DNA of 64,000 bases, from the sequence record OZ346228.1, one strand, 5' to 3'. The first letter of the stretch is position 1, and every line of letters begins with the position of its first letter. The notes under the pieces are model-generated. The model worked only from the letters and a program-made list of their open reading frames with translations, had not been told where the DNA came from and ran no database searches. Shown piece after piece: positions 1 through 63,395 of this stretch. This stretch comes from a phage. Both the position numbers and the translations under genes were made by a program.

Positions 1-1548
1 ATGTCTAAGATTTACGGACCGTGTTCTGAAAAGCAGAAGATGATCCTCGAAAACGATGCAGATATCTTGGTAATCGGCGGTGCCGCAGGGTCTGGCAAGT
101 CGTTCCTCTTGCAGTTGATGCCACTTAAAATTATTGATGACCCCCACAGCTCTGTGGTTATGTTCCGAAGAACAACCCCACAGTTGGAAGGTGAGGGTGG
201 ACTATGGCCTAAAGCAGTAGCTATTTATAGTGATCTGCCTGAAAACATTAAGCCAAAGTTCAGAGAGAAGGATCATAAGTTCATTTTTCCACGGTTTGAT
301 CCGAACACTGGTAAGTGGGATAGAAGCAAAAAGGGAGCTGTTGTAAAATACTGCCATATGGAGTATGTACAAGATAAGCTTAACCATCAGGGGCTTGAGT
401 ACACCATGGTTTGCTTCGATGAGGGCACGCAGTTCGAATGGGAGCAGATAGACTACCTGATGTCTCGTCTGCGATCTCAGTCAAAGTATCCATCAAGAAT
501 GGTTATCAGCTGTAACCCCGATTCAGAACACATGCTTGCCAAACTGGTTAGATGGTGGTTGGACGATGAAGGGTATCCAGATCCGGAGAAATGCGGTAAG
601 AAAAGATATTTTATCCGACGCGACGGTGAATTTATATGGGGAGACTCTAAAGAAGAGTTGATAGAGAAATACACCACGGTTAACGGACTGGGTGTGGAGA
701 TCAAGCCAAGACCGTTGTCATTCTCGTTTATAGGCGCAACAATATTCGATAATCCTGTCTGCTTAAGAGATAACCCAGAATACCTTGCTTTCCTTGAAGG
801 TCTGCCGGAACTGGAAAAAGCTCAGCTTCTTCATGGTAACTGGTTTGCAAAGCCTGAAGGTGCAAACTATTTTCAAAGATCTTTCCTTCGTGATGCCGAT
901 AGAGTACCCCTTGGATCAGTATCTTGCAGGGCATGGGATAAGGCAGGAACCGAGAGAACTTCCGGTAATAAATTTCCTGACTTTACCGCCAGTATTAAGG
1001 TAAGTAAAGATAGCGACGGCTTTTATTACCTGTCCGGTGATTATTGTCCTGAGAACGTGGATGACGGGAGGTATTCCACAGGTCTGGAAGGCAAGTTCTG
1101 TAAAAAGGCTGGTGAACGAGATGTGATCATCAGGAAACAGGCGCAGTTCGATGGTGATGATTGCATAATCGTCTTCTCTGTGGACCCAGGTCAGGCAGGT
1201 AAGAGTGAGTTCTTAACCTCATCCAGATCCTTGCTCGCCGAAGGGTTCAGGGTTGAAGAAGACCCAATGCCTTCCAACAAATCTAAACTGACAAGGTTCT
1301 CACCTTTTGCCAATCTTGCACAACAAGGAATGGTGAGGATTGTAAAATCCAGTTTCCATCCTGATACTCTGGAAGCATTTCTGACTGAACTTGAAAAATT
1401 CAACGGGGAAAGATCAACATTTAACAGAAAAGACGACTGGGCAGACTGTGTAGCTTCTGCGATTAATTTCCTGGAGAAAGAGGAGGTAGCACTTCCTTGT
1501 GTGATTCCATCAATCTCATCACCTTCTATGTTCAAGCGTTTTATCTAA
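1..1548 (+). CDS. terL: terminase large subunit
   Basis: 515-aa ORF; Walker A-like motif VIGGAAGSGKS near N-terminus; first gene of head module, followed by portal-sized gene. Confidence 0.85.
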   Translation: MSKIYGPCSEKQKMILENDADILVIGGAAGSGKSFLLQLMPLKIIDDPHSSVVMFRRTTPQLEGEGGLWPKAVAIYSDLPENIKPKFREKDHKFIFPRFDPNTGKWDRSKKGAVVKYCHMEYVQDKLNHQGLEYTMVCFDEGTQFEWEQIDYLMSRLRSQSKYPSRMVISCNPDSEHMLAKLVRWWLDDEGYPDPEKCGKKRYFIRRDGEFIWGDSKEELIEKYTTVNGLGVEIKPRPLSFSFIGATIFDNPVCLRDNPEYLAFLEGLPELEKAQLLHGNWFAKPEGANYFQRSFLRDADRVPLGSVSCRAWDKAGTERTSGNKFPDFTASIKVSKDSDGFYYLSGDYCPENVDDGRYSTGLEGKFCKKAGERDVIIRKQAQFDGDDCIIVFSVDPGQAGKSEFLTSSRSLLAEGFRVEEDPMPSNKSKLTRFSPFANLAQQGMVRIVKSSFHPDTLEAFLTELEKFNGERSTFNRKDDWADCVASAINFLEKEEVALPCVIPSISSPSMFKRFI

Positions 1549-1551
1549 GTG

Positions 1552-1580
1552 TTGCCAATCTTAATTAGATGTGGTACAAT
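1552..1580 (+). promoter_or_regulatory. sigma70-like promoter, extended -10
   Basis: TTGCCA (1552..1557), 17-nt spacer, TGgTACAAT (1572..1580). Confidence 0.45.
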
Positions 1581-1598
1581 AAAGTAATTGGAGATACT

Positions 1599-1621
1599 AG
1601 CCCTCTGACGAGGGCTATTTT
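1599..1621 (+). terminator. hairpin + U-tract (terminator or 5' UTR structure)
   Basis: AGCCCTC-TGAC-GAGGGCT followed by ATTTT; lies downstream of promoter-like element and upstream of portal start. Confidence 0.4.
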
Positions 1622-1648
1622 GTTATACTGTTTTGAGGGGTAAAGCTT

Positions 1649-3205
1649 GTGTCCAAAAAGAACCGCAGGAAACACAACGCCACAGCCAAAACTGTGAATA
1701 AATCTGGGAACGCAGGCGCACCAACTCATAATGTTCGTATGAGTGAGATCGGTTCTGGCGCACTTTCCCAAATTATGGCAGAATCGCAATCTATGATGGT
1801 TGAGGAATTGCGTTGGCCTCAGCTGATTGCCACAGTGGAGACTATGAAATGTGATTCCACAGTTGCTACTGCCTTAGATACAAAATATGTTTTCATCACG
1901 AAAGCATTCAATGATTTTAAGATCCTTTATAATGTTAAAAGTGAAGACTCTAAGAAAGCTGCCGAGCTTATAGAGTATTCTTTGCGTAATTTGGCAAACC
2001 AACAAACTCTTCGAGATATTGCAAGAAGCGCAGCTACCTTTAACGAGTATGGTTTTTCACTGTTTGAGAAAGTATACCGCAGAGAGAAAGAAGGTAAATA
2101 TGCCGGGATGCTTCTTATTGATAAAATTGCATTCCGACCTCAGGCCAGCCTGTCCAGATCAGAGCCGTTTGTTTTTGACAAGAATAGTAGAACACTGACA
2201 GGTATTTATCAGTCACCTAATGCATTTCTAAACACTCAGAATGCACGCTGGGCTGGACCTCTTGCTGCAATGCCTTCAAAAGGCTTTAATGAGCCTGAAA
2301 TTTTCATCCCTGCTAAAAAGCTTATGCTCATGACCCTGTCAGGAACAGAATCTAACCCTGCAGGTGTGTCACCGATGATAGGTTGCTACAGATCTTTCCG
2401 TGAGAAAGTTCTGATTGAAAACCTTGAGGTTGTTGGCTGTTCCAAAGACCTTGGTGGTGTGCTTGAGCTGAAAATTCCTTCCAATATTTTGAACAAGGCC
2501 AGCATTGACCCGAATTCAATGGAAGGGAGAATGGTTGCAGATCTTATGCTTGACGCAGCAAACGCCCATAGTGGTGAGCAAAGTTTCTTTATACTTCCGT
2601 CTGATAGAGATAAGTCTGGTAAAGAGCTTTACTCCATGACCCTGAAGGGGGTTGACGGTATGGGTAAGCAGTATTCCACTAAAGATTTGATTGATGCCCG
2701 TAAGAAGGCGATTCTTGACCGTTTCGGTGCTGGCTTTATTAACCTCGGTAACGATAACGTTGGATCCTTCTCTCTGTCTGAGTCAAAACAGTCTATCCAT
2801 GGTCATTTTGTTCAGCGTGATATAGATATTATCACTGAAGCCTTCAATAAGGATCTTATTCCACAGCTTCTGGCATTGAATGGTATCATCCTTGAAGATG
2901 ATGATATGCCTAAACTGAAACCTGGTCTGATTGAAGAAGTGGATATGGAGAGCTTCTCCAAGTTTGTCCAGAGGATCGGTGCTGTAGGTTACTTGCCAAA
3001 AACTCCTGCAGTAATTAATAAGATTCTTGAAGTAGGCGGGTTTGATGAAAGATTTGACGAGGACATGGATCAGGAAGAGCTGATGAAGCTCTTGGGCCAG
3101 GACATCAGTAGAGCTGGTGATGGAATGGCTGCAGGATCCACTGGCAACGGCACTTCTAAGATATCATCAACCAGAGATAATTCCATATCCAACATGGAAA
3201 ATTAA
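1649..3205 (+). CDS. portal protein (putative)
   Basis: 518-aa ORF (GTG start) directly downstream of terL and upstream of scaffold/capsid genes; size and position typical of portal. Confidence 0.6.
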   Translation: MSKKNRRKHNATAKTVNKSGNAGAPTHNVRMSEIGSGALSQIMAESQSMMVEELRWPQLIATVETMKCDSTVATALDTKYVFITKAFNDFKILYNVKSEDSKKAAELIEYSLRNLANQQTLRDIARSAATFNEYGFSLFEKVYRREKEGKYAGMLLIDKIAFRPQASLSRSEPFVFDKNSRTLTGIYQSPNAFLNTQNARWAGPLAAMPSKGFNEPEIFIPAKKLMLMTLSGTESNPAGVSPMIGCYRSFREKVLIENLEVVGCSKDLGGVLELKIPSNILNKASIDPNSMEGRMVADLMLDAANAHSGEQSFFILPSDRDKSGKELYSMTLKGVDGMGKQYSTKDLIDARKKAILDRFGAGFINLGNDNVGSFSLSESKQSIHGHFVQRDIDIITEAFNKDLIPQLLALNGIILEDDDMPKLKPGLIEEVDMESFSKFVQRIGAVGYLPKTPAVINKILEVGGFDERFDEDMDQEELMKLLGQDISRAGDGMAAGSTGNGTSKISSTRDNSISNMEN

Positions 3206-3272
3206 AAATTATCAACACAGGGGGTTGCAAAACCTCCTTTGGCGTGATAAAATAATCCACATGGGGAATAAG

Positions 3273-3692
3273 ATGCCACAGGAAGAAATGATTTCCTACG
3301 AAATCATCTACGAGCCTGACACTAAAGATGCTCACGGTGAGTGGATGAGTAAAGACACCATCAAAAAGGCTAAAGATAACTGGGACGCAGCATACGCTGC
3401 AGGCCTAGTTTCTGAAAACCTTTTCCACTTGACCTCTACAGATGCTTTCACTATTGAAAAGACGTGGATTCAAGAAGAGTTTGATGTTGTAGTAATTGGC
3501 ACTGAGCAGGTCATCAAGGCTGGCTCTTGGGTTGCTAAAGTTAAATACAATAATCCTGAATTATGGGAAGCTAAGAAGGCTGGCATTGTTGGTGGCCTAA
3601 GCATTCAGGCAACAGGTAATGTTGATGAAGAAACTGGTGAAATTACCAACGTAAACTTCGGGATCAGTGTTGTAGAAGAGGGCAATGAATAA
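3273..3692 (+). CDS. XkdF-like prohead protease / head maturation protein (putative)
   Basis: ORF between portal and scaffold; ATG at 3273 preceded by GGGGA; N-terminal region resembles XkdF-family proteins; the longer frame from 3117 overlaps the portal gene. Confidence 0.45.
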   Translation: MPQEEMISYEIIYEPDTKDAHGEWMSKDTIKKAKDNWDAAYAAGLVSENLFHLTSTDAFTIEKTWIQEEFDVVVIGTEQVIKAGSWVAKVKYNNPELWEAKKAGIVGGLSIQATGNVDEETGEITNVNFGISVVEEGNE

Positions 3693-4669
3693 TGTCTGAA
3701 AAAACGATTACTATTAAAGAGAAGGGGATTGCCCTGTGCCATAAGGCGCAAGGCTATAGCGCTAACAACAGACCTGTATCTCTTTTGATGAAGAGTGATC
3801 TTAAGCCTGAGCAGTTAACAGACGATATTGTTAAGGCACTTCGCCAAGTTACTGTGGAGCTTAGTTTTGAAGAATACCTGCGTCGTTTCTTCGATATGTG
3901 GTATGATGATGCTAAAGCACTTGCACACATGCTTGGTTTTGAGATTGAAGAGGAGGCTTGGGCTAAAGAGCATCCTGATTGGGAATGGGCGCAAGCTGAC
4001 GCAGAGTCTTGTATTGCATGGCTGGAAGAGCGTTGTGATAACGTGACCATTCATAAGGCTGCAAAAGAAGGCAAGCAGCTTAGTGTGGTAGATCAGTACA
4101 GCCTGTTAAAAACACAACAGATTTTTGAACAAGTAACCGCTGATCTCTTCGATAAAGAAGGGAACCTGATCAAGGCGGTACAGGAACCTGCTGAGGTGGA
4201 TAAAACTACCGAGGTGGATGATGTTGCAAAATCCGCAAATACCGAGGAGAATCCGGTGGACGTAACCAAAACTAAAGAGTATCTGGATCTGCTGAAGCAA
4301 GTAGAAGAGCTGAAAGCAACCCAGAGTAAAGCTGAAGAAATCATCAAGGCCCAGGTTGAAGTTGAAAAAGCTAAAATGCTGACTAAGGCTCAAGCTTTAA
4401 GCTTTGTTGGTGAAGAAGATCATGCAACCCTGGTTGACTTCATGCTGGAAAAAGCTAACGAACCTATCGTAGCTATGCTGGAGAAAGCTCAAGCAAAAAT
4501 TGAAGAGCTGGAAGCAGAGGTGCATAAAACCAAAGAAGAGTTTGCCACCACTGAACATGGTAATGATGGCGAACCTGTTGTGGATGATATTGCAAAATCC
4601 GCAGAAGAAATTCTTGCTGAAAACGTTGCAAAAGCACTTGCTCGTGCACGTGCAGAATCTACCAAATAA
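3692..4669 (+). CDS. capsid scaffolding protein (putative)
   Basis: 325 aa, acidic and helix-rich with repeated DD[IV]AKSA motif; sits immediately upstream of decoration and major capsid genes; start overlaps upstream stop (TAATG). Confidence 0.6.
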   Translation: MSEKTITIKEKGIALCHKAQGYSANNRPVSLLMKSDLKPEQLTDDIVKALRQVTVELSFEEYLRRFFDMWYDDAKALAHMLGFEIEEEAWAKEHPDWEWAQADAESCIAWLEERCDNVTIHKAAKEGKQLSVVDQYSLLKTQQIFEQVTADLFDKEGNLIKAVQEPAEVDKTTEVDDVAKSANTEENPVDVTKTKEYLDLLKQVEELKATQSKAEEIIKAQVEVEKAKMLTKAQALSFVGEEDHATLVDFMLEKANEPIVAMLEKAQAKIEELEAEVHKTKEEFATTEHGNDGEPVVDDIAKSAEEILAENVAKALARARAESTK

Positions 4670-4689
4670 GACATTAACGGGGGAAATAA

Positions 4690-5073
4690 ATGATTACCGC
4701 TCAATATTCTGATATCGTGCTCGGCAAAGTTGATTCTAGCGATGCTGGCTACAATTTTAAAGAGATGGAAATTAAACTGACAGAGCACCATCATGCTGGC
4801 ACGGTTGTGACCGAAGATGGTAGCATTGCCAATCAGGACGGTTCAGACGCCTATGGCGTTCTGGTGGATCGTGCTTTAATTCCAGACGCTGCTGGTAAAG
4901 TACATATCGCTGAACCTCTTGGCACAAAGAAATATAAACTGGTTGTTGCTGTGCGTGGTGTTACTTTTGCCAAGGATAAATTGCTGGCAACTGGTGGTGC
5001 TAAAGCAGAACAGGCTGTGTTAGACAAGCTTGAGGCTCTGGGTAACAAGATTCAGGTCCAGACTCTTGGTTAA
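4690..5073 (+). CDS. head decoration protein (putative)
   Basis: 127-aa ORF between scaffold and major capsid gene, the lambda gpD position. Confidence 0.4.
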   Translation: MITAQYSDIVLGKVDSSDAGYNFKEMEIKLTEHHHAGTVVTEDGSIANQDGSDAYGVLVDRALIPDAAGKVHIAEPLGTKKYKLVVAVRGVTFAKDKLLATGGAKAEQAVLDKLEALGNKIQVQTLG

Positions 5074-21561: not shown

Positions 21562-22713
21562 ATGGCTGATATTAAAGTTGTCAGAATTGAATCTCTTCCT
21601 GCCACTACCGCAGTGACAGAGGATGATTACCTGGTTGTTCAACAACCAGACCTGACCCGTCGTGTAAAAATTGGCGATGTTGTCCATGTTGATGGGACTG
21701 TTTCTCATGTAATCTCCTTTAAGGAAGGTGGTAAGTTAAACGGCCCAATGGATTTTGCCTACTTCGAAGAGGAAGACCTCTACCTGCGTTGGAAAGGCGA
21801 ATTTCCACACACTGTTCCTGCACTGTCTTCACCGTACTCCGATGGTGGGATTACTGACGCTGCATGGATGGTATATACTGACCCGTCCTTAAGGGAGGAG
21901 CTGGAATCTACCATTGGCGCATCTATGATCATGACAGCCGAAGGGCAGTCTGTCCAGGATGTAATGGATGTTACTGTTCAGACAGCTAACGATGCCAAAG
22001 CACTTGCACAGCGTGTAGATTTTGGTACAGTGCACACTGTAGGCGATGTTATTCACCTTGATAACTTTGTTGGCCCTGCAGTTATTGAAGAGGGAAGAAC
22101 TACCAACTACCCTTCTGTAGCAGCTGGTGAAAAATTTCTGAACGGTGTGGTATCTCGTCGTGATACTACAACTGTTGATGGTATTTTCCGTGGCGCTACC
22201 ACCGGAGCCATGTACACCATTGCAGTAACCAACGGTGTAGCAACAACGAAAAGAATAGCACTTCGTGATGAATTTAAACGCCTAGAGGCAAACAACCCAA
22301 CAAGAACAGTTATCCGTGCTGGAGATGATTTAAATACGGCAGGGTACTTGCAGCTTGATGCAACAGGCCGTTGGGGTATGTGGAACCAACAAACAGCTTC
22401 GTGGCAACCTCTTGCTATAGAGCAAGGCGGCACAGGGGCTACAACTTTAGCATATGCTCAGAATCTGTTCAAAGTTCCTATAGCAGCAGGTGTAAAAGAC
22501 TTCTTAACACTGCCAAGAACTGCAGGAATGGAAGATGGGAAATACTACCCAATCATCGTTAGAACAGATCCGTATTACGCCCCTTCGACAGGTACAGATA
22601 TTACTATAGTCACCAGGTCTTCATCTGGAAATGACCCTATGAACTGTGCCACCCTGCAGTGTCACTATAGAACTGGCGGCTGGACGGGCAGGGGGACTCT
22701 TTCTACGGGGTAG
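21562..22713 (+). CDS. tail fibre/spike protein with shared N-terminal anchor domain
   Basis: 383 aa; N-terminus paralogous to 18259..18927; RBS CAGGAG. Confidence 0.45.
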   Translation: MADIKVVRIESLPATTAVTEDDYLVVQQPDLTRRVKIGDVVHVDGTVSHVISFKEGGKLNGPMDFAYFEEEDLYLRWKGEFPHTVPALSSPYSDGGITDAAWMVYTDPSLREELESTIGASMIMTAEGQSVQDVMDVTVQTANDAKALAQRVDFGTVHTVGDVIHLDNFVGPAVIEEGRTTNYPSVAAGEKFLNGVVSRRDTTTVDGIFRGATTGAMYTIAVTNGVATTKRIALRDEFKRLEANNPTRTVIRAGDDLNTAGYLQLDATGRWGMWNQQTASWQPLAIEQGGTGATTLAYAQNLFKVPIAAGVKDFLTLPRTAGMEDGKYYPIIVRTDPYYAPSTGTDITIVTRSSSGNDPMNCATLQCHYRTGGWTGRGTLSTG

Positions 22714-55338: not shown

Positions 55339-55608
55339 ATGTTATACCAGCAATATGAACTTCGTGCAGAAAAAGAGTTAAATTTTGACAAAGATATTCA
55401 CAGATATTATTATGGGAAAGTTAGAGGGCAAGCAAGAAAGTGTACTCCAACACTCTTTTATGCCAGCAGACGACTAGCGCCAGAAGAGGCAACAGCAGAA
55501 AGGGTTGCGTACAACTGGAGAGTCACGTATGATATTGACAGATTCGATGTGATATCTGTTTTGGAAAACTTTGAAAACACTTACACACAAGTAGAGGACT
55601 TTTACTAA
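55339..55608 (+). CDS. small hypothetical protein
   Basis: 89 aa; RBS AAGGAG. Confidence 0.4.
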   Translation: MLYQQYELRAEKELNFDKDIHRYYYGKVRGQARKCTPTLFYASRRLAPEEATAERVAYNWRVTYDIDRFDVISVLENFENTYTQVEDFY

Positions 55609-56792
55609 TGTCAAGAAACGTATTCGAAAGTGGTCAAATCACTGTCCGTGAGTTGCCAGCTATTATTCAGTTTGCCCAACGTCATAGCCGATCTGTCCTA
55701 ATTTTGGGACCAATGGGTGTGGGTAAAAGCCAGGTGATGAAGCAGATCGCTGATAATATGTTCGGTGAGCGAGATGACAACCTTGTTGACGTGCGACTGT
55801 CAGATAAAGATCCTGCCGACTTATCTGGGCTACCTATCCCTGTAGAAGCGGATGGAACTACACGTACAGTGTTTGCAATTCCAGAATTTTGGCCTGCGGA
55901 TCCTGACTGGAGCGGAATTATCTTTCTGGATGAGCTCACTCATGCAGATAACTACCTGCAAAAGGTTGCAATGCAAATTATGCTTGACCACAAGTGCGGC
56001 ACCTATGCATTCCCTAAGGGTTCTGTTTTTGTGGCTGCGGGTAACCGTTCTACAGATGGTGCGGTTCTTTCGGCGCTCGAAGCCCCTCTGGCTAACCGTT
56101 TTATCATTGTAGAGGTTACAAGCAATGCAGAGGTGTTTATTGAGGACTACGCATTCCTCAACGGGGTTCACTCCTCTGTAATTGGGTATCTGAAAAGAGT
56201 TCCATCAGCTATTGATAATTATGAGGCTATGGCTGAGATTAATTGTCCATCTTTTGCCACACCACGATCTTGGGTTGCTGCATCTGACATCTTGCACGAT
56301 TTTGACAGCGGTATTATTTCTGACGCTATGGCCCGTGTTCTTCTGCAAGGTGCTATTGGTCACACTGCAGCGGTAGAGATCTGGACATACCACACCAAGA
56401 AACGCAATTTACCGGAAATCGGTCGGATTATGGCAGGTGGCTGCAAAGAATACGTAGGCCCTAAGCAGCCAGACATTTTGTGGATTCTTGGATCTGAAGG
56501 TTGTATCGCTATTCGTAATATGATGGAAAATGCAAGTATCTCAGACGAAGATCTTGTCAGCTGTGTGGCAAACTTCCTCGATTTCCTTTGGGAAAACTTC
56601 AAGGACGAGAACCGAGATTTTGTATTCTCAGTCTTTATGGCGATGATGAAACCTAATGCCTTAGGAAATGCCTTGCTTATCGGTAAAGGGCGTGACAAGA
56701 TTGTTGCTCAGCTGATCAAAGCATACCCAAACCTGATGAAGATTGTAAAAGAGTTTGGTGAAGAGTTTAGCGCCATTTTGGCTAAAGCTTAA
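55608..56792 (+). CDS. MoxR-like AAA+ ATPase
   Basis: 394 aa; Walker A GPMGVGKS, Walker B IIFLDELTHAD, sensor-like AAGNRS; MoxR/CbbQ-type architecture. Confidence 0.7.
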   Translation: MSRNVFESGQITVRELPAIIQFAQRHSRSVLILGPMGVGKSQVMKQIADNMFGERDDNLVDVRLSDKDPADLSGLPIPVEADGTTRTVFAIPEFWPADPDWSGIIFLDELTHADNYLQKVAMQIMLDHKCGTYAFPKGSVFVAAGNRSTDGAVLSALEAPLANRFIIVEVTSNAEVFIEDYAFLNGVHSSVIGYLKRVPSAIDNYEAMAEINCPSFATPRSWVAASDILHDFDSGIISDAMARVLLQGAIGHTAAVEIWTYHTKKRNLPEIGRIMAGGCKEYVGPKQPDILWILGSEGCIAIRNMMENASISDEDLVSCVANFLDFLWENFKDENRDFVFSVFMAMMKPNALGNALLIGKGRDKIVAQLIKAYPNLMKIVKEFGEEFSAILAKA

Positions 56793-56802
56793 GGGGGGTT
56801 GT

Positions 56803-57183
56803 ATGGCTAAAGTAGGTAAGCGGGGAAACTACCTGGTGGTATTGACCGAGGAGCCGGAGAAGGAGTACGAATGCAGCTCCACTTGCGTGATCGATATCCG
56901 AGAAAAAGATGTAGATGAAATCTGGTTTAAAATATTGGACGCTTGCGATAGCAGTGATTATTTCTTCATTTATGTCAACGATAAGGCTGGATTCTTCCAT
57001 GACGACGGAGAGTTGCCGTATGAAATCTATGAACTTGTAGAGGCTTGCCATCGTGGAGATGCGGAGTTGTTTGGCCTACGGCTGAAAAGCGGTAAATTCT
57101 TCTATCAAGATGAGTGCATGAATCTTCATAACTTTGTAGAGGGAACTTGCAACGATGGAGAGATTTTGGCACACTACGATTAA
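56803..57183 (+). CDS. hypothetical Cys-containing protein
   Basis: ATG 56803 after RBS AAGGGGGG; followed by terminator. Confidence 0.4.
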   Translation: MAKVGKRGNYLVVLTEEPEKEYECSSTCVIDIREKDVDEIWFKILDACDSSDYFFIYVNDKAGFFHDDGELPYEIYELVEACHRGDAELFGLRLKSGKFFYQDECMNLHNFVEGTCNDGEILAHYD

Positions 57184-57196
57184 TTTCTAAGACCTC

Positions 57197-57223
57197 CCCC
57201 GCTTCGGCGGGGATTTTCTATTT
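57197..57223 (+). terminator. rho-independent terminator
   Basis: CCCCCGC-TTCG-GCGGGG then TTTTCTATTT. Confidence 0.65.
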
Positions 57224-57232
57224 GGAGTCATT

Positions 57233-57733
57233 GTGAAAATTAAGATCTTTGCTATTATTTTGAGCGCACTTTTATCGCTGCCTGTTGTTGCAGCACCAAA
57301 ACAAAAAGTATATCATACTTGCAAGCCCTCAGATACTAAGGAAAACATTCTGGCATGCAATATCTACAGGGAGGCTAGAGGGGATGGCACGATGGGTATG
57401 CTGGCATCAGGGTTTGCCACACTAAACAGGAAATCTCACCCCAAATACCCAGACACTATAAGAAAGATTGTCTACCAACCTAACCAGTTTTCGTGGACAA
57501 ACCACGGCAAAACTTTTAAGGTGACAGAAAAAGATTCATGGGATCACGCTAAAAGTCTTGCAAAGATGCTTCTAAAGGTCTATAATAACAACCATGTTGC
57601 ATACATGGCTATGGACATAACAGGTGGAGCAACACACTACCATACAACCAAAGTACGACCGAAATGGGCAAAAAAGATGCAGAGGACAGCTCAATTCGGG
57701 AGTCATATCTACTACAAGGAGCGCAATAAATGA
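57233..57733 (+). CDS. SleB/CwlJ-family cell wall hydrolase with signal peptide (candidate endolysin)
   Basis: 166 aa, GTG start; N-terminal signal-like MKIKIFAIILSALLSLPVVAAP; motifs NIYREARGDG, LNRKSHPKYPDTIRKIVYQPNQFSW. Confidence 0.7.
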   Translation: MKIKIFAIILSALLSLPVVAAPKQKVYHTCKPSDTKENILACNIYREARGDGTMGMLASGFATLNRKSHPKYPDTIRKIVYQPNQFSWTNHGKTFKVTEKDSWDHAKSLAKMLLKVYNNNHVAYMAMDITGGATHYHTTKVRPKWAKKMQRTAQFGSHIYYKERNK

Positions 57734-58275
57734 TTGTAAACAGTAATGAAACTAAAGCAGTACTAACCGGAAATATGGAGGTCACCAGGGGCTCAATTTC
57801 TCTGAACAAAGAGACTTTTGGGCTAATCATTAAAGGGATTTACGAAGATAAGGTGCTGGCAAGCTGCCGTGAACCAATCTTCAATGCTGTGGACTCCCAT
57901 GTTGAGTCTGGACGGGGTGATGTACCGATCATCATTCACTCTCCTACAGACCTTGAACCATACTTCTTTGTGCAGGACGTTGGATTGGGCATGTCGGAAG
58001 AGATGGTCCGCAACACTTTCATGAACCTCGGGGAGTCAACCAAGCGCAACAGCAACGCTCTGGTAGGTAATAAAGGTGTAGGTTCAAAGGCCCCGTTCAG
58101 CATGGTGGACACTTTCGATGTGATCAGTGTGCCATACCAACACAACAGTGCTAAGTGCCGTGCATGCCGCTACGAAATAGTAGCAGCACCGGAATCACGC
58201 AAAGATGGCGATCCGATTGAATACGTAGTTGACCGTGATGGTAACATCATCGACATTATCTACGAGGAGGCGTAA
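57730..58275 (+). CDS. GHKL-type ATPase-like domain protein (putative)
   Basis: 181 aa; Bergerat-fold-like motifs EPIFNAVD (N box), DVGLGM (G1 box), GNKGVGSKA (G2 box). Confidence 0.4.
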   Translation: MIVNSNETKAVLTGNMEVTRGSISLNKETFGLIIKGIYEDKVLASCREPIFNAVDSHVESGRGDVPIIIHSPTDLEPYFFVQDVGLGMSEEMVRNTFMNLGESTKRNSNALVGNKGVGSKAPFSMVDTFDVISVPYQHNSAKCRACRYEIVAAPESRKDGDPIEYVVDRDGNIIDIIYEEA

Positions 58276-59645
58276 TGGAAAAAGGGCAGTATGACGTAGG
58301 CACAGATGCTGCCCTCATTGCAATCATGAGTGGTGAGAATGTCTTCGTTTCAGGACCTGCAGGTTGTGGGAAGACGTATCTCATCAACATGATCCAGTCA
58401 ATGTATGGAGACTCTTGCATAACGGTTGCCCCGACAGGGGTAGCCGCTTTAAACGTTAATGGAGCAACAGCACACCGAACATTCGATCTTGCAGCAGGTG
58501 TGAGCATGGAGTCGGACTGGACCGCAATAAGGGCAAAAACAGCAAAGCCTTTGAAAAGCAAGGCATTTACCATCCTAATTATCGATGAAATCTCTATGAT
58601 CCGTGCTGATAAGTTTATAGAGATGGATAGGAAACTCCGCTTCCTTCGAAAAAATGACAAACCTTTCGGAGGCATACAGGTCATATTGTTTGGCGATTTT
58701 TACCAGGCACCTCCTGTTGTCTCTTCTATGGAGAAGGAAGCCTACTTCAACTTCTACCATACGGACCTGTGTTGCTACACCGAATCTTGGAAAGAGCTTG
58801 ACCTCCACAACATAGCCCTAATAGATCAGTTCCGACAGGAGTCTATTCGATTTGCCACAATGCTTAACTGTGTTCGTGAGGGTCGTCGCATAAAAGAGGT
58901 TGTAGCAGAACTTAATGCTCGCTGTTACAAAGGTGGTGTACCAACAGATGCTCTCACAATTTGCGCCACCAACAAACAAGCAGAGGAAGTAAACAGAAGG
59001 TTCTATGATGCCATCAACGCCCCAGAGAAGGTATACACTGGTGAAATGAAGGGTAAGTTTCCCTCCACCCTGCCAGTTGAGCAGGAGATGAAGTTGAAAA
59101 TTGGCATGAAAGTTATGATAACCGCCAACGATGTTGACCCGACGCACAAAGTACCTTATTATGTTAACGGAACACGTGCCACAATTGTTAAATTTAAGAA
59201 CAAGGCGGTGGTGGTAGAGCTTGAAGATGGAACACAGGTTGACATAGAGCAGAGGTTGTGGGAGAATAACGAGTATAAGCCCTCTCAGAGATACAACATT
59301 GCAGAAAGGAAGATGGAGAAGTTTATAGAGAGGGTAGTGATTGGGTCATACAAGCAACTTCCTCTGAAATCTGGGTACGCCGTAACATCTCATAAAAGTC
59401 AAGGACTTACGCTAGATTGTTACAACCTAGACCTTGGAAAGAACGGAGCTTTCTCTCCTGGGATGACGTATGTCGCTTTGAGTAGAGTTAAGACAATACA
59501 AGGAATAAACTTGTTGCGTCCCCTAAGAGAAGTTGACATTATTGTTGACCCGCGAGTAGTAGAGTTTTACAATACAACATTCCCTGACTTAGACAAAATT
59601 GTCAGGAAAGATTTTGAAACCAGAGCAGAAGAGGGGGACGTATGA
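58275..59645 (+). CDS. PIF1/RecD-like DNA helicase
   Basis: 456 aa; Walker A GPAGCGKT, Walker B LIIDEISM, C-terminal helicase motifs VTSHKSQGLT and YVALSRV. Confidence 0.8.
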   Translation: MEKGQYDVGTDAALIAIMSGENVFVSGPAGCGKTYLINMIQSMYGDSCITVAPTGVAALNVNGATAHRTFDLAAGVSMESDWTAIRAKTAKPLKSKAFTILIIDEISMIRADKFIEMDRKLRFLRKNDKPFGGIQVILFGDFYQAPPVVSSMEKEAYFNFYHTDLCCYTESWKELDLHNIALIDQFRQESIRFATMLNCVREGRRIKEVVAELNARCYKGGVPTDALTICATNKQAEEVNRRFYDAINAPEKVYTGEMKGKFPSTLPVEQEMKLKIGMKVMITANDVDPTHKVPYYVNGTRATIVKFKNKAVVVELEDGTQVDIEQRLWENNEYKPSQRYNIAERKMEKFIERVVIGSYKQLPLKSGYAVTSHKSQGLTLDCYNLDLGKNGAFSPGMTYVALSRVKTIQGINLLRPLREVDIIVDPRVVEFYNTTFPDLDKIVRKDFETRAEEGDV

Positions 59646-59983
59646 GTTTGTGGAGAAATATCGTTAACTACGTGTGTGGCAATCCGACTCCTGAAGAGAA
59701 GGATGTTGTGATTCACGATTTTACTAAAAGATCTCGTGAAAAAGATCTACTGCTAACAAAGGTGACTGATAAAGATCCTGCAGTAGGGGACTGGGCAGGT
59801 TTTGCGTTTACATCGGACAAATACACCTTTAACAAAGGTGACTACCTTGTTGTGGATTTTAACGAAGACATTGAGGGTGCTGAACCTTACTATCAAACCC
59901 TTATTGTTGCAGGGTGTGTTAATCTCTCTGCAGGTATGCACAGTTTGATTCTTTTTGAGCTTGACTCTGAAGACCTTGAGTAG
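59642..59983 (+). CDS. hypothetical protein
   Basis: 113-aa ORF overlapping helicase stop. Confidence 0.4.
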   Translation: MSLWRNIVNYVCGNPTPEEKDVVIHDFTKRSREKDLLLTKVTDKDPAVGDWAGFAFTSDKYTFNKGDYLVVDFNEDIEGAEPYYQTLIVAGCVNLSAGMHSLILFELDSEDLE

Positions 59984-60044
59984 TAAGATGTGAGTATAAA
60001 GGGGAGGCACTCCTCCCCACAAAAACTAAGGAGAGCACCAAACG

Positions 60045-61370
60045 ATGAGTAAAACCAAATTAGAACTAACCTGGATAGGTAAAAACGAGCGCAAAAAGTT
60101 AGAGCCGCACATTTTGTTAGAAGATTCTAGCAAGTCTTACCACAGCCAGAAAGTGACCGAAAACGATATTTTTGATAATAAACTGATTTTTGGAGATAAC
60201 TTATTAGCATTGAAGGCGCTAGAGCAAGAGTATGCAGGCAAAGTGAAGTGTGTTTACATAGACCCGCCATTCAATACCGGGAGGGCTTTTGAGCACTACG
60301 ATGATAGCCTGGAGCATTCCATTTGGCTGGGCTTAATGAGGGATAGGTTAGAAATAATTCGTAATCTTCTAAGTGATGATGGGGTAATATTCGTTCACTT
60401 AGATGATTGCGAAATGGCGTATTTAAAAGTTTTGATGGACGAGATTTTTGGTCGTGCAAATCAGTTAAATACCATATCGATGACCACAAATTCCCCTTCG
60501 GGATTTAAGGCAACAGGAGCCACAGTTTTCTCCACAGCAAACTTTTTGCTTGTATATGCAAAAGATCGCACCCAGAAACCGCTTAATAAAATCTATATAC
60601 CTAAAGGGTACGATACAGGATATAACAAATACCTATTAAACCCGGATGACCATTATAAAAATTGGACGTGGTGCAGTATTGCCGATGCGTTTGCAAAGGC
60701 CAATGGCTATAAGGATGCAAAAGAAGCCAAGAAAAAACTGCCTGACACATTCGATGATGAATTAGCACAATTCGCAATTGATAATGCAGAACGTGTATTT
60801 CAATCTGTTGCAATTGGTGGTGGTGCTAAAATAAAGAGAAAAGAAACTATCGAGAAGTCAAAGAAAGATAGGGATAAGGTTTATGTACATCCAAATGAGG
60901 ATGTTGAAGGATTTTATATCGCAAATGGTAGGCAAATGGTCTTTTACTCCAATAGGCTTTTGGAAATTGACGGTGAGATGCAACCTGCGGAACTAATAAC
61001 TGATGTTTGGACAGACATTAGTTGGAATGGAATAGCAAATGAAGGCGGCGTTAGTTTCAAAAATGGGAAAAAACCAGAAGCGCTTTTGAAGCGGATTTTC
61101 GAAATGTGTACGCGAGAAGGCGATTTGGTATTGGATTCATTCGGTGGTTCGGGAACTACTGCTGCTGTAGCTCACAAGATGAAAAGACGTTGGATCTCAA
61201 TCGAGCTAGGTGATCATTGTCATACCCATATTATTCCGCGCTTGGAAAAAGTGATCGATGGCGAAGATCAAGGTGGTATTTCTAAGTCTGTAAGCTGGCA
61301 AGGTGGTGGTGGCTTCCGTTATTACAAACTCACCCCGGCCTTAGTTGCGAAAGATAAGTCTGATCAATAA
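60045..61370 (+). CDS. DNA methyltransferase (beta-class, probable N6-adenine)
   Basis: 441 aa; motif IV DPPF (VYIDPPFNTG) precedes motif I FGGSGTT, the order typical of beta-class amino-methyltransferases. Confidence 0.75.
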   Translation: MSKTKLELTWIGKNERKKLEPHILLEDSSKSYHSQKVTENDIFDNKLIFGDNLLALKALEQEYAGKVKCVYIDPPFNTGRAFEHYDDSLEHSIWLGLMRDRLEIIRNLLSDDGVIFVHLDDCEMAYLKVLMDEIFGRANQLNTISMTTNSPSGFKATGATVFSTANFLLVYAKDRTQKPLNKIYIPKGYDTGYNKYLLNPDDHYKNWTWCSIADAFAKANGYKDAKEAKKKLPDTFDDELAQFAIDNAERVFQSVAIGGGAKIKRKETIEKSKKDRDKVYVHPNEDVEGFYIANGRQMVFYSNRLLEIDGEMQPAELITDVWTDISWNGIANEGGVSFKNGKKPEALLKRIFEMCTREGDLVLDSFGGSGTTAAVAHKMKRRWISIELGDHCHTHIIPRLEKVIDGEDQGGISKSVSWQGGGGFRYYKLTPALVAKDKSDQ

Positions 61371-61383
61371 AGAGTACAATCAA

Positions 61384-61689
61384 ATGATGAAACGTTATAA
61401 ACCATACACTTTTGAAATCGATTTCGAACTTGACGATATGTTCACTGTGGAAGCTCAGGCAGTTGTCCAGTTGCCAGACCCAGAGTGTCGTGATTCTGAT
61501 GTTGACTATTATGGATTTAGACAGATCACTGATGTGCATGTTTACCACAACGGTGAAGAGGTGGACTTCCACCAATTGCCAAACGATATGCGCCACTCAA
61601 TTTACAAACGTGCAGCCCGTGAACTAGAGTCCTATCTGGATGCAGCGACGACAGCAGCTGCATTTGCTGAAGAAGTGGGAGGTTTCTGA
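61384..61689 (+). CDS. hypothetical protein
   Basis: ATG 61384 within reported ORF 61345..61689 that otherwise overlaps the methyltransferase. Confidence 0.4.
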   Translation: MMKRYKPYTFEIDFELDDMFTVEAQAVVQLPDPECRDSDVDYYGFRQITDVHVYHNGEEVDFHQLPNDMRHSIYKRAARELESYLDAATTAAAFAEEVGGF

Positions 61690-62585: not shown

Positions 62586-62612
62586 GCCCTGCCCGAAAGG
62601 GTGGGGCTTTTT
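62586..62612 (+). terminator. rho-independent terminator
   Basis: GCCCTGCCC-GAAA-GGGTGGGGC then TTTTT; overlaps probable start region of the C5-MTase-like gene. Confidence 0.6.
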
Positions 62613-62630
62613 GCATTAGGAGACAGCAAA

Positions 62631-63395
62631 TTGAAATTTATCTACAAAGAACACTACCACAAAGGTGTTGTGTGGAGTCTATTTGACGGGTCTGGTGGTG
62701 CAGTCATTGACTGGGCAAAAGCTGGGTACCTGTGCCTGTGCTTTAATGCAGAAGGCGCTGATCACGGCAGTTATGCAGAGGTTATAACCGATCATCCCAA
62801 CATTCACTATGTGGATTATTGGATTGACCCATGGTTCCCTCAGGAAACTTTTTGCATGTACCCAGCTCCAGACTTTATTCTTGCATTTCCTCCGTGCACG
62901 CATTTAGCGGTATCAGGTGCTGCACATTTTAAGAAAAAGCTGGCTAAGGACCCTCTGATCCAAATTAATGCCGTAAAGGATGCTCGGGTTGCGGAAGAGC
63001 TGGGAGAGATTTACGATTGCCCGTGGCATGTAGAGAATCCTGTGGGTGTTATGTCCACACTGTGGCGCAAACCTGATTACCGTTTTCATCCTTCTGACTA
63101 TGGTGGGTATTTACCGGAGGATGATGTAAACCCTTGGTTTCCTGAATTTATAGCTCCACGTGATGCCTATCCAAAAATAACTTGCGGCTGGATAGGTAAT
63201 GGATTTATAATCCCGCCCACAAAACCTGTCCCGCAAATAGTTGACGCGGTTAGCGGGTATTCTATGCAACACGCCAAGCTGGGTGGAAAGAGTGCAAGAA
63301 CGAAGATGATTCGAAGTCTCACACCACGTGGCTGGGCAAAAGCCGTATTCTTAGCAAACGAGCCTGTAGTAAGGAGCAGAATTAATGGGAAGTAA
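62631..63395 (+). CDS. C5-cytosine methyltransferase-like protein (minimal, putative)
   Basis: Probable TTG start 62631 after RBS AGGAG; motifs FDGSGG (motif I-like), FPPCTHLAVSGA (PC motif IV-like), HVENPVG (ENV motif VI-like); about 254 aa, short for this family. Confidence 0.4.
   Translation: MKFIYKEHYHKGVVWSLFDGSGGAVIDWAKAGYLCLCFNAEGADHGSYAEVITDHPNIHYVDYWIDPWFPQETFCMYPAPDFILAFPPCTHLAVSGAAHFKKKLAKDPLIQINAVKDARVAEELGEIYDCPWHVENPVGVMSTLWRKPDYRFHPSDYGGYLPEDDVNPWFPEFIAPRDAYPKITCGWIGNGFIIPPTKPVPQIVDAVSGYSMQHAKLGGKSARTKMIRSLTPRGWAKAVFLANEPVVRSRINGK

Follow-up and report, generated by a model that had tools for sequence, protein, structure and literature searches.

An in-frame rIIA/rIIB deletion fusion next to a PIF1-like helicase gene in a Vequintavirus, and its recurrence at a short imperfect repeat

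The DNA studied here (from here: the window) is a stretch of 64,000 nucleotides from a phage (sequence record OZ346228.1), which is a Vequintavirus (rV5-like coliphage) according to megablast. We focus on three closely packed genes on its plus strand. The first one (57233..57733) encodes a cell-wall hydrolase of 166 amino acids (aa; Pfam Hydrolase_2, E=2e-19), and its stop codon overlaps the ATG of the following gene in the sequence ATGA. The second is an open reading frame (ORF) of 181 aa that starts with ATG (57730..58275), and the third (58275..59645) is an intact gene for a PIF1/Dda-like SF1B helicase of 456 aa. The 181-aa ORF contains sequence motifs of GHKL ATPases, and an earlier note, made from the sequence alone, had regarded it as a stand-alone minimal ATPase of this type paired with the helicase. 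Both ORFs exist as described in that note. The 181-aa ORF is, however, not a minimal ATPase gene but rIIA codons 1-134 joined in frame to rIIB codons 355-401 by a deletion of 2,653 bp.

This deletion is evident from the comparison with close relatives. Positions 55600-61400 of the window are 99.9% identical to Escherichia phage naswa (megablast), in which the annotated gene order is cell-wall hydrolase, rIIA (660 aa), rIIB (401 aa) and helicase. The hydrolase gene, the native upstream neighbour of rIIA, and its overlap with the rIIA start codon are also present in naswa. A 660-aa rIIA and a 401-aa rIIB are located between hydrolase and helicase in every GenBank relative, and in all well-matching records the 5,801 window bases span approximately 8,454 bases in two pieces. 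The segment absent from the window compared to naswa has a length of 2,653 bp. A translocation of these 2.65 kb was considered and rejected, as the segment is found nowhere else in the window. Elsewhere, window and naswa differ by an identity of 92.9% over window positions 427-4964 and by two other indels; hence, the window represents a distinct isolate, not naswa minus a piece.

The origin of both parts of the ORF was established by tblastn, a check of the reading frame and alignment of the junction. Residues 1-134 of naswa rIIA are 100% identical to the translation of 57730-58131, and residues 356-401 of naswa rIIB are 100% identical to that of 58135-58272, corresponding to aa 136-181 of the ORF. 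At the level of single bases, the window tracks rIIA to ...GATGTGATC, passes through the heptamer AGTGTGC that is common to both genes (58126..58132) and then follows rIIB from CATACC onwards. The rIIA-derived part (57730..58131) thus comprises codons 1-134, encoding the N-terminal two thirds of the rIIA GHKL domain, while the rIIB-derived tail (58133..58275) consists of the rest of codon 355, codons 356-401 and the stop codon and is 100% identical to the rIIB C-terminus of naswa. Both breakpoints are in codon phase 1, yielding 134 + 47 = 181 aa in a single frame. Lost are rIIA codons 135-660, the 10-bp spacer and rIIB codons 1-354 (354 of 401 codons, 88% of rIIB).

Profile searches gave a matching picture. 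The ORF matched PHROG 612 ('RIIA lysis inhibitor') with E=1e-58, only along profile positions 1-134 of 725, whereas wild-type naswa rIIA matched positions 1-722. The tail produced weak matches to the RIIB families PHROG 36818 and 2886, and near-identical fusions carry a precomputed match to Pfam PF26926 (Phage_T4_rIIB). The ORF contains neither the full-length rIIA architecture of about 640-870 aa with GHKL, middle and C-terminal regions nor a full-length rIIB of about 400 aa.

The proximity of the ORF to the helicase gene has the same explanation. The helicase is PIF1-like, as the earlier note had proposed (Pfam PF05970 PIF1, E=1.5e-32; PHROG 325 'Dda-like helicase', E=1e-111), with a full-length PIF1-type core, and its gene shows 100.0% nucleotide identity to the helicase gene of naswa. 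The last A of the TAA stop codon of the 181-aa ORF (58273-58275) is indeed also the first base of the helicase start codon (58275-58277), so that the sequence reads TAATG, and a separate Shine-Dalgarno sequence for the helicase, GGAGG, is located four bases upstream of that ATG (58266-58270). The entire element (58266..58277) is the native rIIB/helicase junction: the same 1-nt overlap between rIIB and helicase exists in naswa, FV3, Murica, pangalan, phita32, Bas54 and one Seunavirus-like contig, in which a 411-aa rIIB precedes a PIF1 helicase, and the Murica record annotates a ribosome-binding site at the position of the GGAGG. Because the overlap is native to the relatives, the adjacency of a GHKL fragment and a helicase is a by-product of the deletion and not a designed module, and the claim of a specific pairing falls.

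The sequence motifs themselves are genuine. Motif I (N box), EPIFNAVD, corresponds to aa 48-55 (57871..57894), motif II (G1 box), DVGLGM, to aa 83-88 (57976..57993) and motif III (G2 box), GNKGVGSKA, to aa 113-121 (58066..58092). The ORF matched Pfam HATPase_c_3 with 32.6 bits (gathering cutoff 25; E=9.7e-8), and the motifs were also recovered in an alignment of 130 sequences of the rIIA family, on which we judged conservation. The fusion retains the invariant residues E48, N52, D55, G85, G113, G116, G118 and K120, as well as D83 and G87 of motif II, conserved in at least 90% of the family alignment. The HATPase_c_3 match stops at profile position 110 of 137, while the Pfam match of wild-type rIIA extends beyond residue 134, to aa 147. 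Deleted from the fusion are the invariant residues G166, R275 and E276 and the near-invariant residues Y142, P151, V173, D177 and F181.

An AlphaFold2 model of wild-type Vequintavirus rIIA was built on the 130-sequence alignment for P0026, the representative of the wild-type rIIA cluster (naswa rIIA: L001:3631-5613). The mean predicted local distance difference test score (pLDDT) of this model was 87, with most of the first 300 residues above 90. Before the breakpoint at aa 134, its N-terminal domain contains helices 27-37 and 41-59, strands 67-70 and 78-82, helix 90-98, the lid, helix 118-124 and strand 128-135; after the breakpoint follow strands 138-147, 150-160 and 166-172 and helix 175-189. 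Judged from the wild-type model, the fusion has kept three of the six β-strands of the GHKL domain and has lost the last three together with the following helix, so that a complete α/β sandwich including the post-G2 strands (motif IV region) is missing from the 181-aa ORF. The fusion itself was modeled from an alignment of 10 sequences only, with a mean pLDDT of 39 that is too low to be informative; its rIIB tail was predicted as three β-strands.

In Foldseek comparisons, the full-length rIIA model matched structures of the Hsp90 family (TRAP1, Hsp90, GRP94, Hsc82) over approximately 500-600 columns with E~1e-17, and TRAP1 was a marginal match by phmmer (E=0.02). On the basis of this model, the Bergerat fold predicted by the earlier note is confirmed for the parent rIIA, and neither of the outcomes which that note had named as fatal to its proposal, a fold other than GHKL or the disappearance of the motifs on profile alignment, was observed. 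The part of the prediction that does not stand concerns the ORF, in which the fold is incomplete. Similarly, it is true that the ORF has no Hsp90 domain attached, but only because the Hsp90-like remainder was deleted. Proteins of the rIIA type were described to consist of an N-terminal GHKL ATPase domain and a variable C-terminal region (PMC7824862). According to the model, rIIA may instead be an Hsp90-like protein with GHKL and middle domains, more than a GHKL domain followed by a variable tail, and the invariant R275/E276 pair might be the counterpart of the catalytic loop in the Hsp90 middle domain. The fusion shares the N, G1 and G2 boxes with the GHKL ATPases Hsp90, TRAP1 and HtpG but differs from them in possessing only about half of the β-sheet of the fold and no middle domain. 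To our knowledge, neither chaperone nor ATPase activity is known for rIIA itself.

The length distribution of the family was analysed in an exhaustive HMMER search, which yielded 13,460 family representatives. Among the best 150 of these, lengths are mostly 640-870 aa, about 87% have at least 587 aa, and the homology to the ORF ends at about residue 134 in nearly all. A first homologue search had pointed to a family of mainly short proteins; this was a property of the word-index tool used and was corrected by the exhaustive search.

These data allow weighing the view of the ORF as a genuine GHKL ATPase of minimal size that stands alone, is translationally coupled to the PIF1-like helicase and works with it in a new replication module. 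The intact motifs I-III with a Pfam match above the gathering score, the 1-nt stop/start overlap with the helicase gene and the presence of an intact ORF in seven distinct versions of the sequence (see below) would fit such a protein. Yet both parts of the ORF recur with 100% identity at the ends of rIIA and rIIB in naswa, itself 99.9% identical to this region, the helicase overlap belongs to rIIB, half of the β-sheet and the invariant G166 are missing, the arrangement occurs in none of 119 isolate genomes, and the family homology is confined to the first ~135 residues of longer proteins. We therefore regard a stand-alone ATPase as scarcely tenable, a reading that is contradicted already by synteny.

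The site of the deletion points to its route. The two BLAST segments, one from rIIA and one from rIIB, overlap in a 31-bp homeologous segment (58102..58132), an imperfect direct repeat of rIIA codons 125-135 and rIIB codons 345-355 with 24 of 31 positions identical, which encodes MVDTFDVISV in rIIA and MVDPADVVSV in rIIB. In a scan of all direct-register 31-mers it was the single best match between the two genes, followed by one with 21/31 identical positions. The window crossover is located inside the terminal run of the 31-mer, the exact 7-bp microhomology AGTGTGC. A crossover within an imperfect repeat is the hallmark of illegitimate recombination guided by homeology or of slippage during replication, by which phage deletions arise according to the textbooks. 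Starting from the ancestral order of cell-wall hydrolase, rIIA, rIIB and PIF1-like helicase, recombination or slippage between the two copies dropped the 3' part of rIIA, the spacer and the 5' part of rIIB and fused both genes. The outcome is in frame because the repeat has the same codon phase in rIIA and rIIB, and with such a scar ribosomes could presumably still reach the helicase junction. Paralogy of rIIA and rIIB was considered as the source of the repeat and discarded, as BLASTP found only the 10-residue match MVDxxDVxSV (E=0.17). Since there is no rIIA/rIIB similarity beyond this decapeptide, we treat the repeat as fortuitous.

Equivalent fusions were found in other phages. The exact protein encoded by the window ORF was absent from a collection of 15 billion proteins, but a protein search detected a 97%-identical protein of 181 aa. 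Six distinct 181-aa sequences are grouped in its 90% cluster; they come from Logan and ENA assemblies, with contigs of up to 133 kb. For scale, the corresponding wild-type clusters hold 521 distinct rIIA and 344 distinct rIIB sequences. The carrier contigs, which come from at least nine samples, several of them labelled as metagenomes, show the order hydrolase, 181-aa ORF and helicase. Including the window, the junctions represent five configurations, all of them inside the same 31-mer with differing crossover points: within AGTGTGC in the window, at a single T between A22 and T24 in contigs L005 and L019, within GATGTG in L004, within CAGTGT and joined to an FV3-type rIIB in L008 and L009, and within ATGGT in L006, L007 and L018.

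The carriers belong to two clades, murica and FV3. The helicases of the window, L004, L005 and L019 are 97.3-100% identical to those of the murica-type wild-type phages compared, while the helicases of L006, L008 and L018 are 98.1-98.4% identical to that of wild-type FV3 and about 87-88% identical to that of the window. The window helicase is 100% identical to wild-type naswa and at most 98.2% identical to any other carrier. Judged from these sequences, the simplest reading is that a single 31-bp hotspot has given rise to the deletion independently at least four or five times, in two Vequintavirus clades.

This recurrence also bears on the concern that the junction might be an artefact of assembly or sequencing. 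The exact junction and protein of the window occur in none of the public collections searched, which would fit an artefact. On the other hand, exact identity extends over no more than 7 bp at the junction, much shorter than the k-mer of any assembler, and independent assemblies from at least nine samples contain equivalent junctions at the same 31-bp site. An artefact is thus very improbable.

Further rearrangements of both genes were detected. In contig L012 (L012:5001-5833; ENA ERZ28637438, WALL22-1_SAMN28061852 scaffold_233), from another phage lineage with a protein identity to naswa of about 65-68%, an out-of-frame deletion places rIIA aa 1-189 directly before rIIB aa 310-398, which are in another frame and have their own ATG. 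Protein P0071 of 244 aa (L017:1753-2487; Logan SRR24390593), from a distant lineage with 38% identity, combines an rIIA N-terminus in frame with an rIIB-like C-terminus (...DVVSIPTDYDNSKGRACRYEV...) and matches Pfam PF26926. One of the carrier contigs has its fusion gene broken into two ORFs (P0017, P0018).

Some side observations concern the same genes. PHROG 609 ('RIIB', profile length 1055) matched the N-terminal region of rIIA at profile positions 29-186 and rIIB at 806-1045, which suggests that in some phages rIIA and rIIB are naturally made as one full-length chain. In the Seunavirus-like contig L010 (L010:5001-6986; Logan SRR2510828), rIIA appears as three ORFs of 202, 271 and 178 aa with an intact rIIB and a PIF1 helicase downstream, and SP40_76 of Salmonella phage 40 (P0005, 202 aa) looks similarly frameshifted. 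The split rIIA of L010 and SP40_76 could be due to sequencing errors or represent rIIA pseudogenes.

A selected function of the fusion as a mini-rII protein, be it as a decoy, as a dominant-negative form or for keeping the frame for helicase expression, might be considered in view of the repeated origin of in-frame 181-aa fusions that are intact in two clades. P0071 as another, distant in-frame fusion, the single-chain rIIA-rIIB proteins apparently encoded by some phages and the conditional importance of the helicase of phage Bas54 on a clinical E. coli isolate (log2 fold change -6.3, see below) might be seen in the same light. However, the in-frame result follows automatically from the codon phase of the repeat and our search favoured in-frame products, the fusion gene of the P0017/P0018 carrier is broken, the deletion in L012 is out of frame, and the helicase gene, non-essential on K-12, is preceded by a GGAGG site of its own. 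We consider such a function unlikely.

We conclude that the 181-aa ORF is very probably a scar, left in frame when the rII locus lost 2,653 bp, and a non-functional remnant in a phage that is rIIA- rIIB-. The lack of function, which would resemble that of classical T4 rII deletion mutants, is inferred from what is gone: half of the ATP-binding fold, all of the downstream rIIA and 88% of rIIB. Several points weigh against this conclusion. The junction is absent from 119 GenBank Vequintavirus records and from complete E. coli genomes, and neither the exact junction strings nor a degenerate junction pattern, validated on the window and six carrier loci, gave any hit in IMG/VR, JGI metagenomes and GTDB genomes. 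All recurrent fusions found are in frame, a possible hint of selection for the product, in searches that were protein-based and biased towards in-frame products. In addition, the rIIB tail may pack onto the truncated domain, and the escape from defence discussed below as a rationale rests on T6, not on a Vequintavirus.

Loss of rII appears to be tolerated in the genus Vequintavirus, for which there is direct support from phage Bas54, sharing the ancestral gene order and gene lengths of the window. In the HIDEN-SEQ transposon map of Bas54 on E. coli K-12, rIIA was hit by insertions at 90 of its 101 TA sites and rIIB at 56 of 59, with a classification as 'Non-essential' for both (10.1101/2025.11.20.689424, supplementary file 9); nor did either show depletion on CFE311, a uropathogenic isolate (10.1101/2025.11.20.689424). 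In T4, the rII genes are needed only against RexAB (PMC8594841). A possible explanation for the persistence of rII-null phages in natural samples is that rII is dispensable on many hosts. T6 escapes a gasdermin/CARD defence via loss-of-function mutations in rIIB, and expression of RIIB alone triggers the system (PMC10312443). By analogy, the triggering of host defence by RIIB could be a reason for the persistence of such phages, although this is speculative. An extended version would regard the recurrent rIIA(1-134)::rIIB(355-401) fusion as an adaptive allele, with RII loss favoured on hosts that sense RII and the 31-bp repeat acting as a phase-preserving switch that spares helicase expression. 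We see only a small chance for this scenario; in a stronger version, the 181-aa chimera itself would fold and function.

The same transposon data inform on the neighbouring genes. An essential role of the helicase was considered and rejected, because the data class its Bas54 counterpart, bas54_0068, as non-essential on K-12; depletion was seen on isolate CFE311 only, where it was strong (log2 fold change -6.3; 10.1101/2025.11.20.689424). The helicase may serve counter-defence or be required only under certain conditions, rather than belong to core replication. Ahead of the hydrolase gene, the window encodes a 394-aa AAA/MoxR-like ATPase (55608-56792, plus strand; PHROG 1297) with the same position and length as bas54_0063, the reported anti-defence gene of Bas54 against system DS-28 of E. 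coli CFE311 (10.1101/2025.11.20.689424).

The closest known counterpart of the fusion is the T4 rII deletion r1589, reportedly described by Benzer and Champe and used by Crick et al. 1961. In r1589, rIIB activity is retained. As in r1589, the deletion in the window spans the 3' end of rIIA, the intercistronic spacer and the 5' end of rIIB and joins both cistrons in one frame, and r1589 phage is viable on permissive hosts. The differences are that the fusion described here belongs to the Vequintavirinae, stems from natural and metagenomic sequences rather than from a laboratory mutant hunt, keeps only 47 of 401 rIIB residues, making rIIB function unlikely, and recurs at a single 31-bp homeologous site. 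A sequenced T4 rIIAB fusion of the r1589 type was found to be sensitive to RexAB (PMC8594841, S5 Fig). Compared to Vequintavirus rIIA, the fusion has identical first 134 residues with GHKL motifs I-III and the same place downstream of the cell-wall hydrolase gene, but lacks residues 135-660 and with them the remainder of the GHKL domain, the middle region that resembles Hsp90 and contains the invariant R275/E276, and the C-terminal region. With regard to the mechanism, phage CSP1C provides a parallel, in which a deletion of 4,672 bp between 14-bp repeats was attributed to recombination or slippage (PMC13577005). Both cases share the kilobase scale, a short direct repeat of which one copy is kept and a chimeric ORF made from the genes at the ends. 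Unlike in CSP1C, the two repeat copies described here match imperfectly (24/31, with exact runs of 7 bp at most), and independent events differ in their crossover point.

Some further observations relate to the surroundings of the locus. Just upstream of the hydrolase gene, a G+C-rich hairpin with a T-run (57197-57212, plus strand) precedes a promoter-like site (57231-57258), which suggests joint transcription of the hydrolase gene, the rII scar, the helicase gene and orf113 as a single unit; across 55-61.5 kb, however, the counts of promoters and terminators are at chance level. DNA methyltransferase genes follow just downstream of the helicase block, at 60045-61370 (plus strand; N6_N4_Mtase, Pfam E=4e-42) and 62601-63395 (plus strand; PHROG 757). 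GC skew and AT skew are negative between approximately 46 and 54 kb, and the counterpart of this region in naswa contains small genes and 'anti-sigma factor' genes on the minus strand. At window position 425/427, about 320 bp are missing compared to naswa, between the split 'terminase large subunit' ORFs of the latter, and this naswa segment may be an intron-like or mobile insert. Another discontinuity of about 800 bp compared to naswa is located in a tail-fibre gene near 22,400. Finally, the records MG065635.1 and MG065659.1, 'Campylobacter phage C12' and 'C5' with Campylobacter jejuni as host, are 98% identical to E. coli Vequintaviruses across the locus and are probably mislabelled or contaminant genomes.

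In its significance, this finding is modest: the locus is not a new system, and what deserves some attention is the recurrent natural rII deletion and the prediction of an Hsp90-like architecture for rIIA. The claim of a GHKL-helicase module carries no weight, as the arrangement is an accident of the deletion. For genome annotation, the case cautions that even perfect catalytic motifs in a short ORF are compatible with a deletion scar, a question that synteny with close relatives settles quickly. For the biology of these phages, it means that the rII locus, the classic system of deletion mapping, loses genes also in the wild, and that in rV5-like coliphages it does so repeatedly, by way of a single short and imperfect repeat and with fusions of the r1589 type as the product. 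If such alleles are selected, they would be pointers to hosts whose immunity senses RII proteins, and natural rII-null Vequintaviruses provide ready material for studying rIIA and rIIB outside T4.

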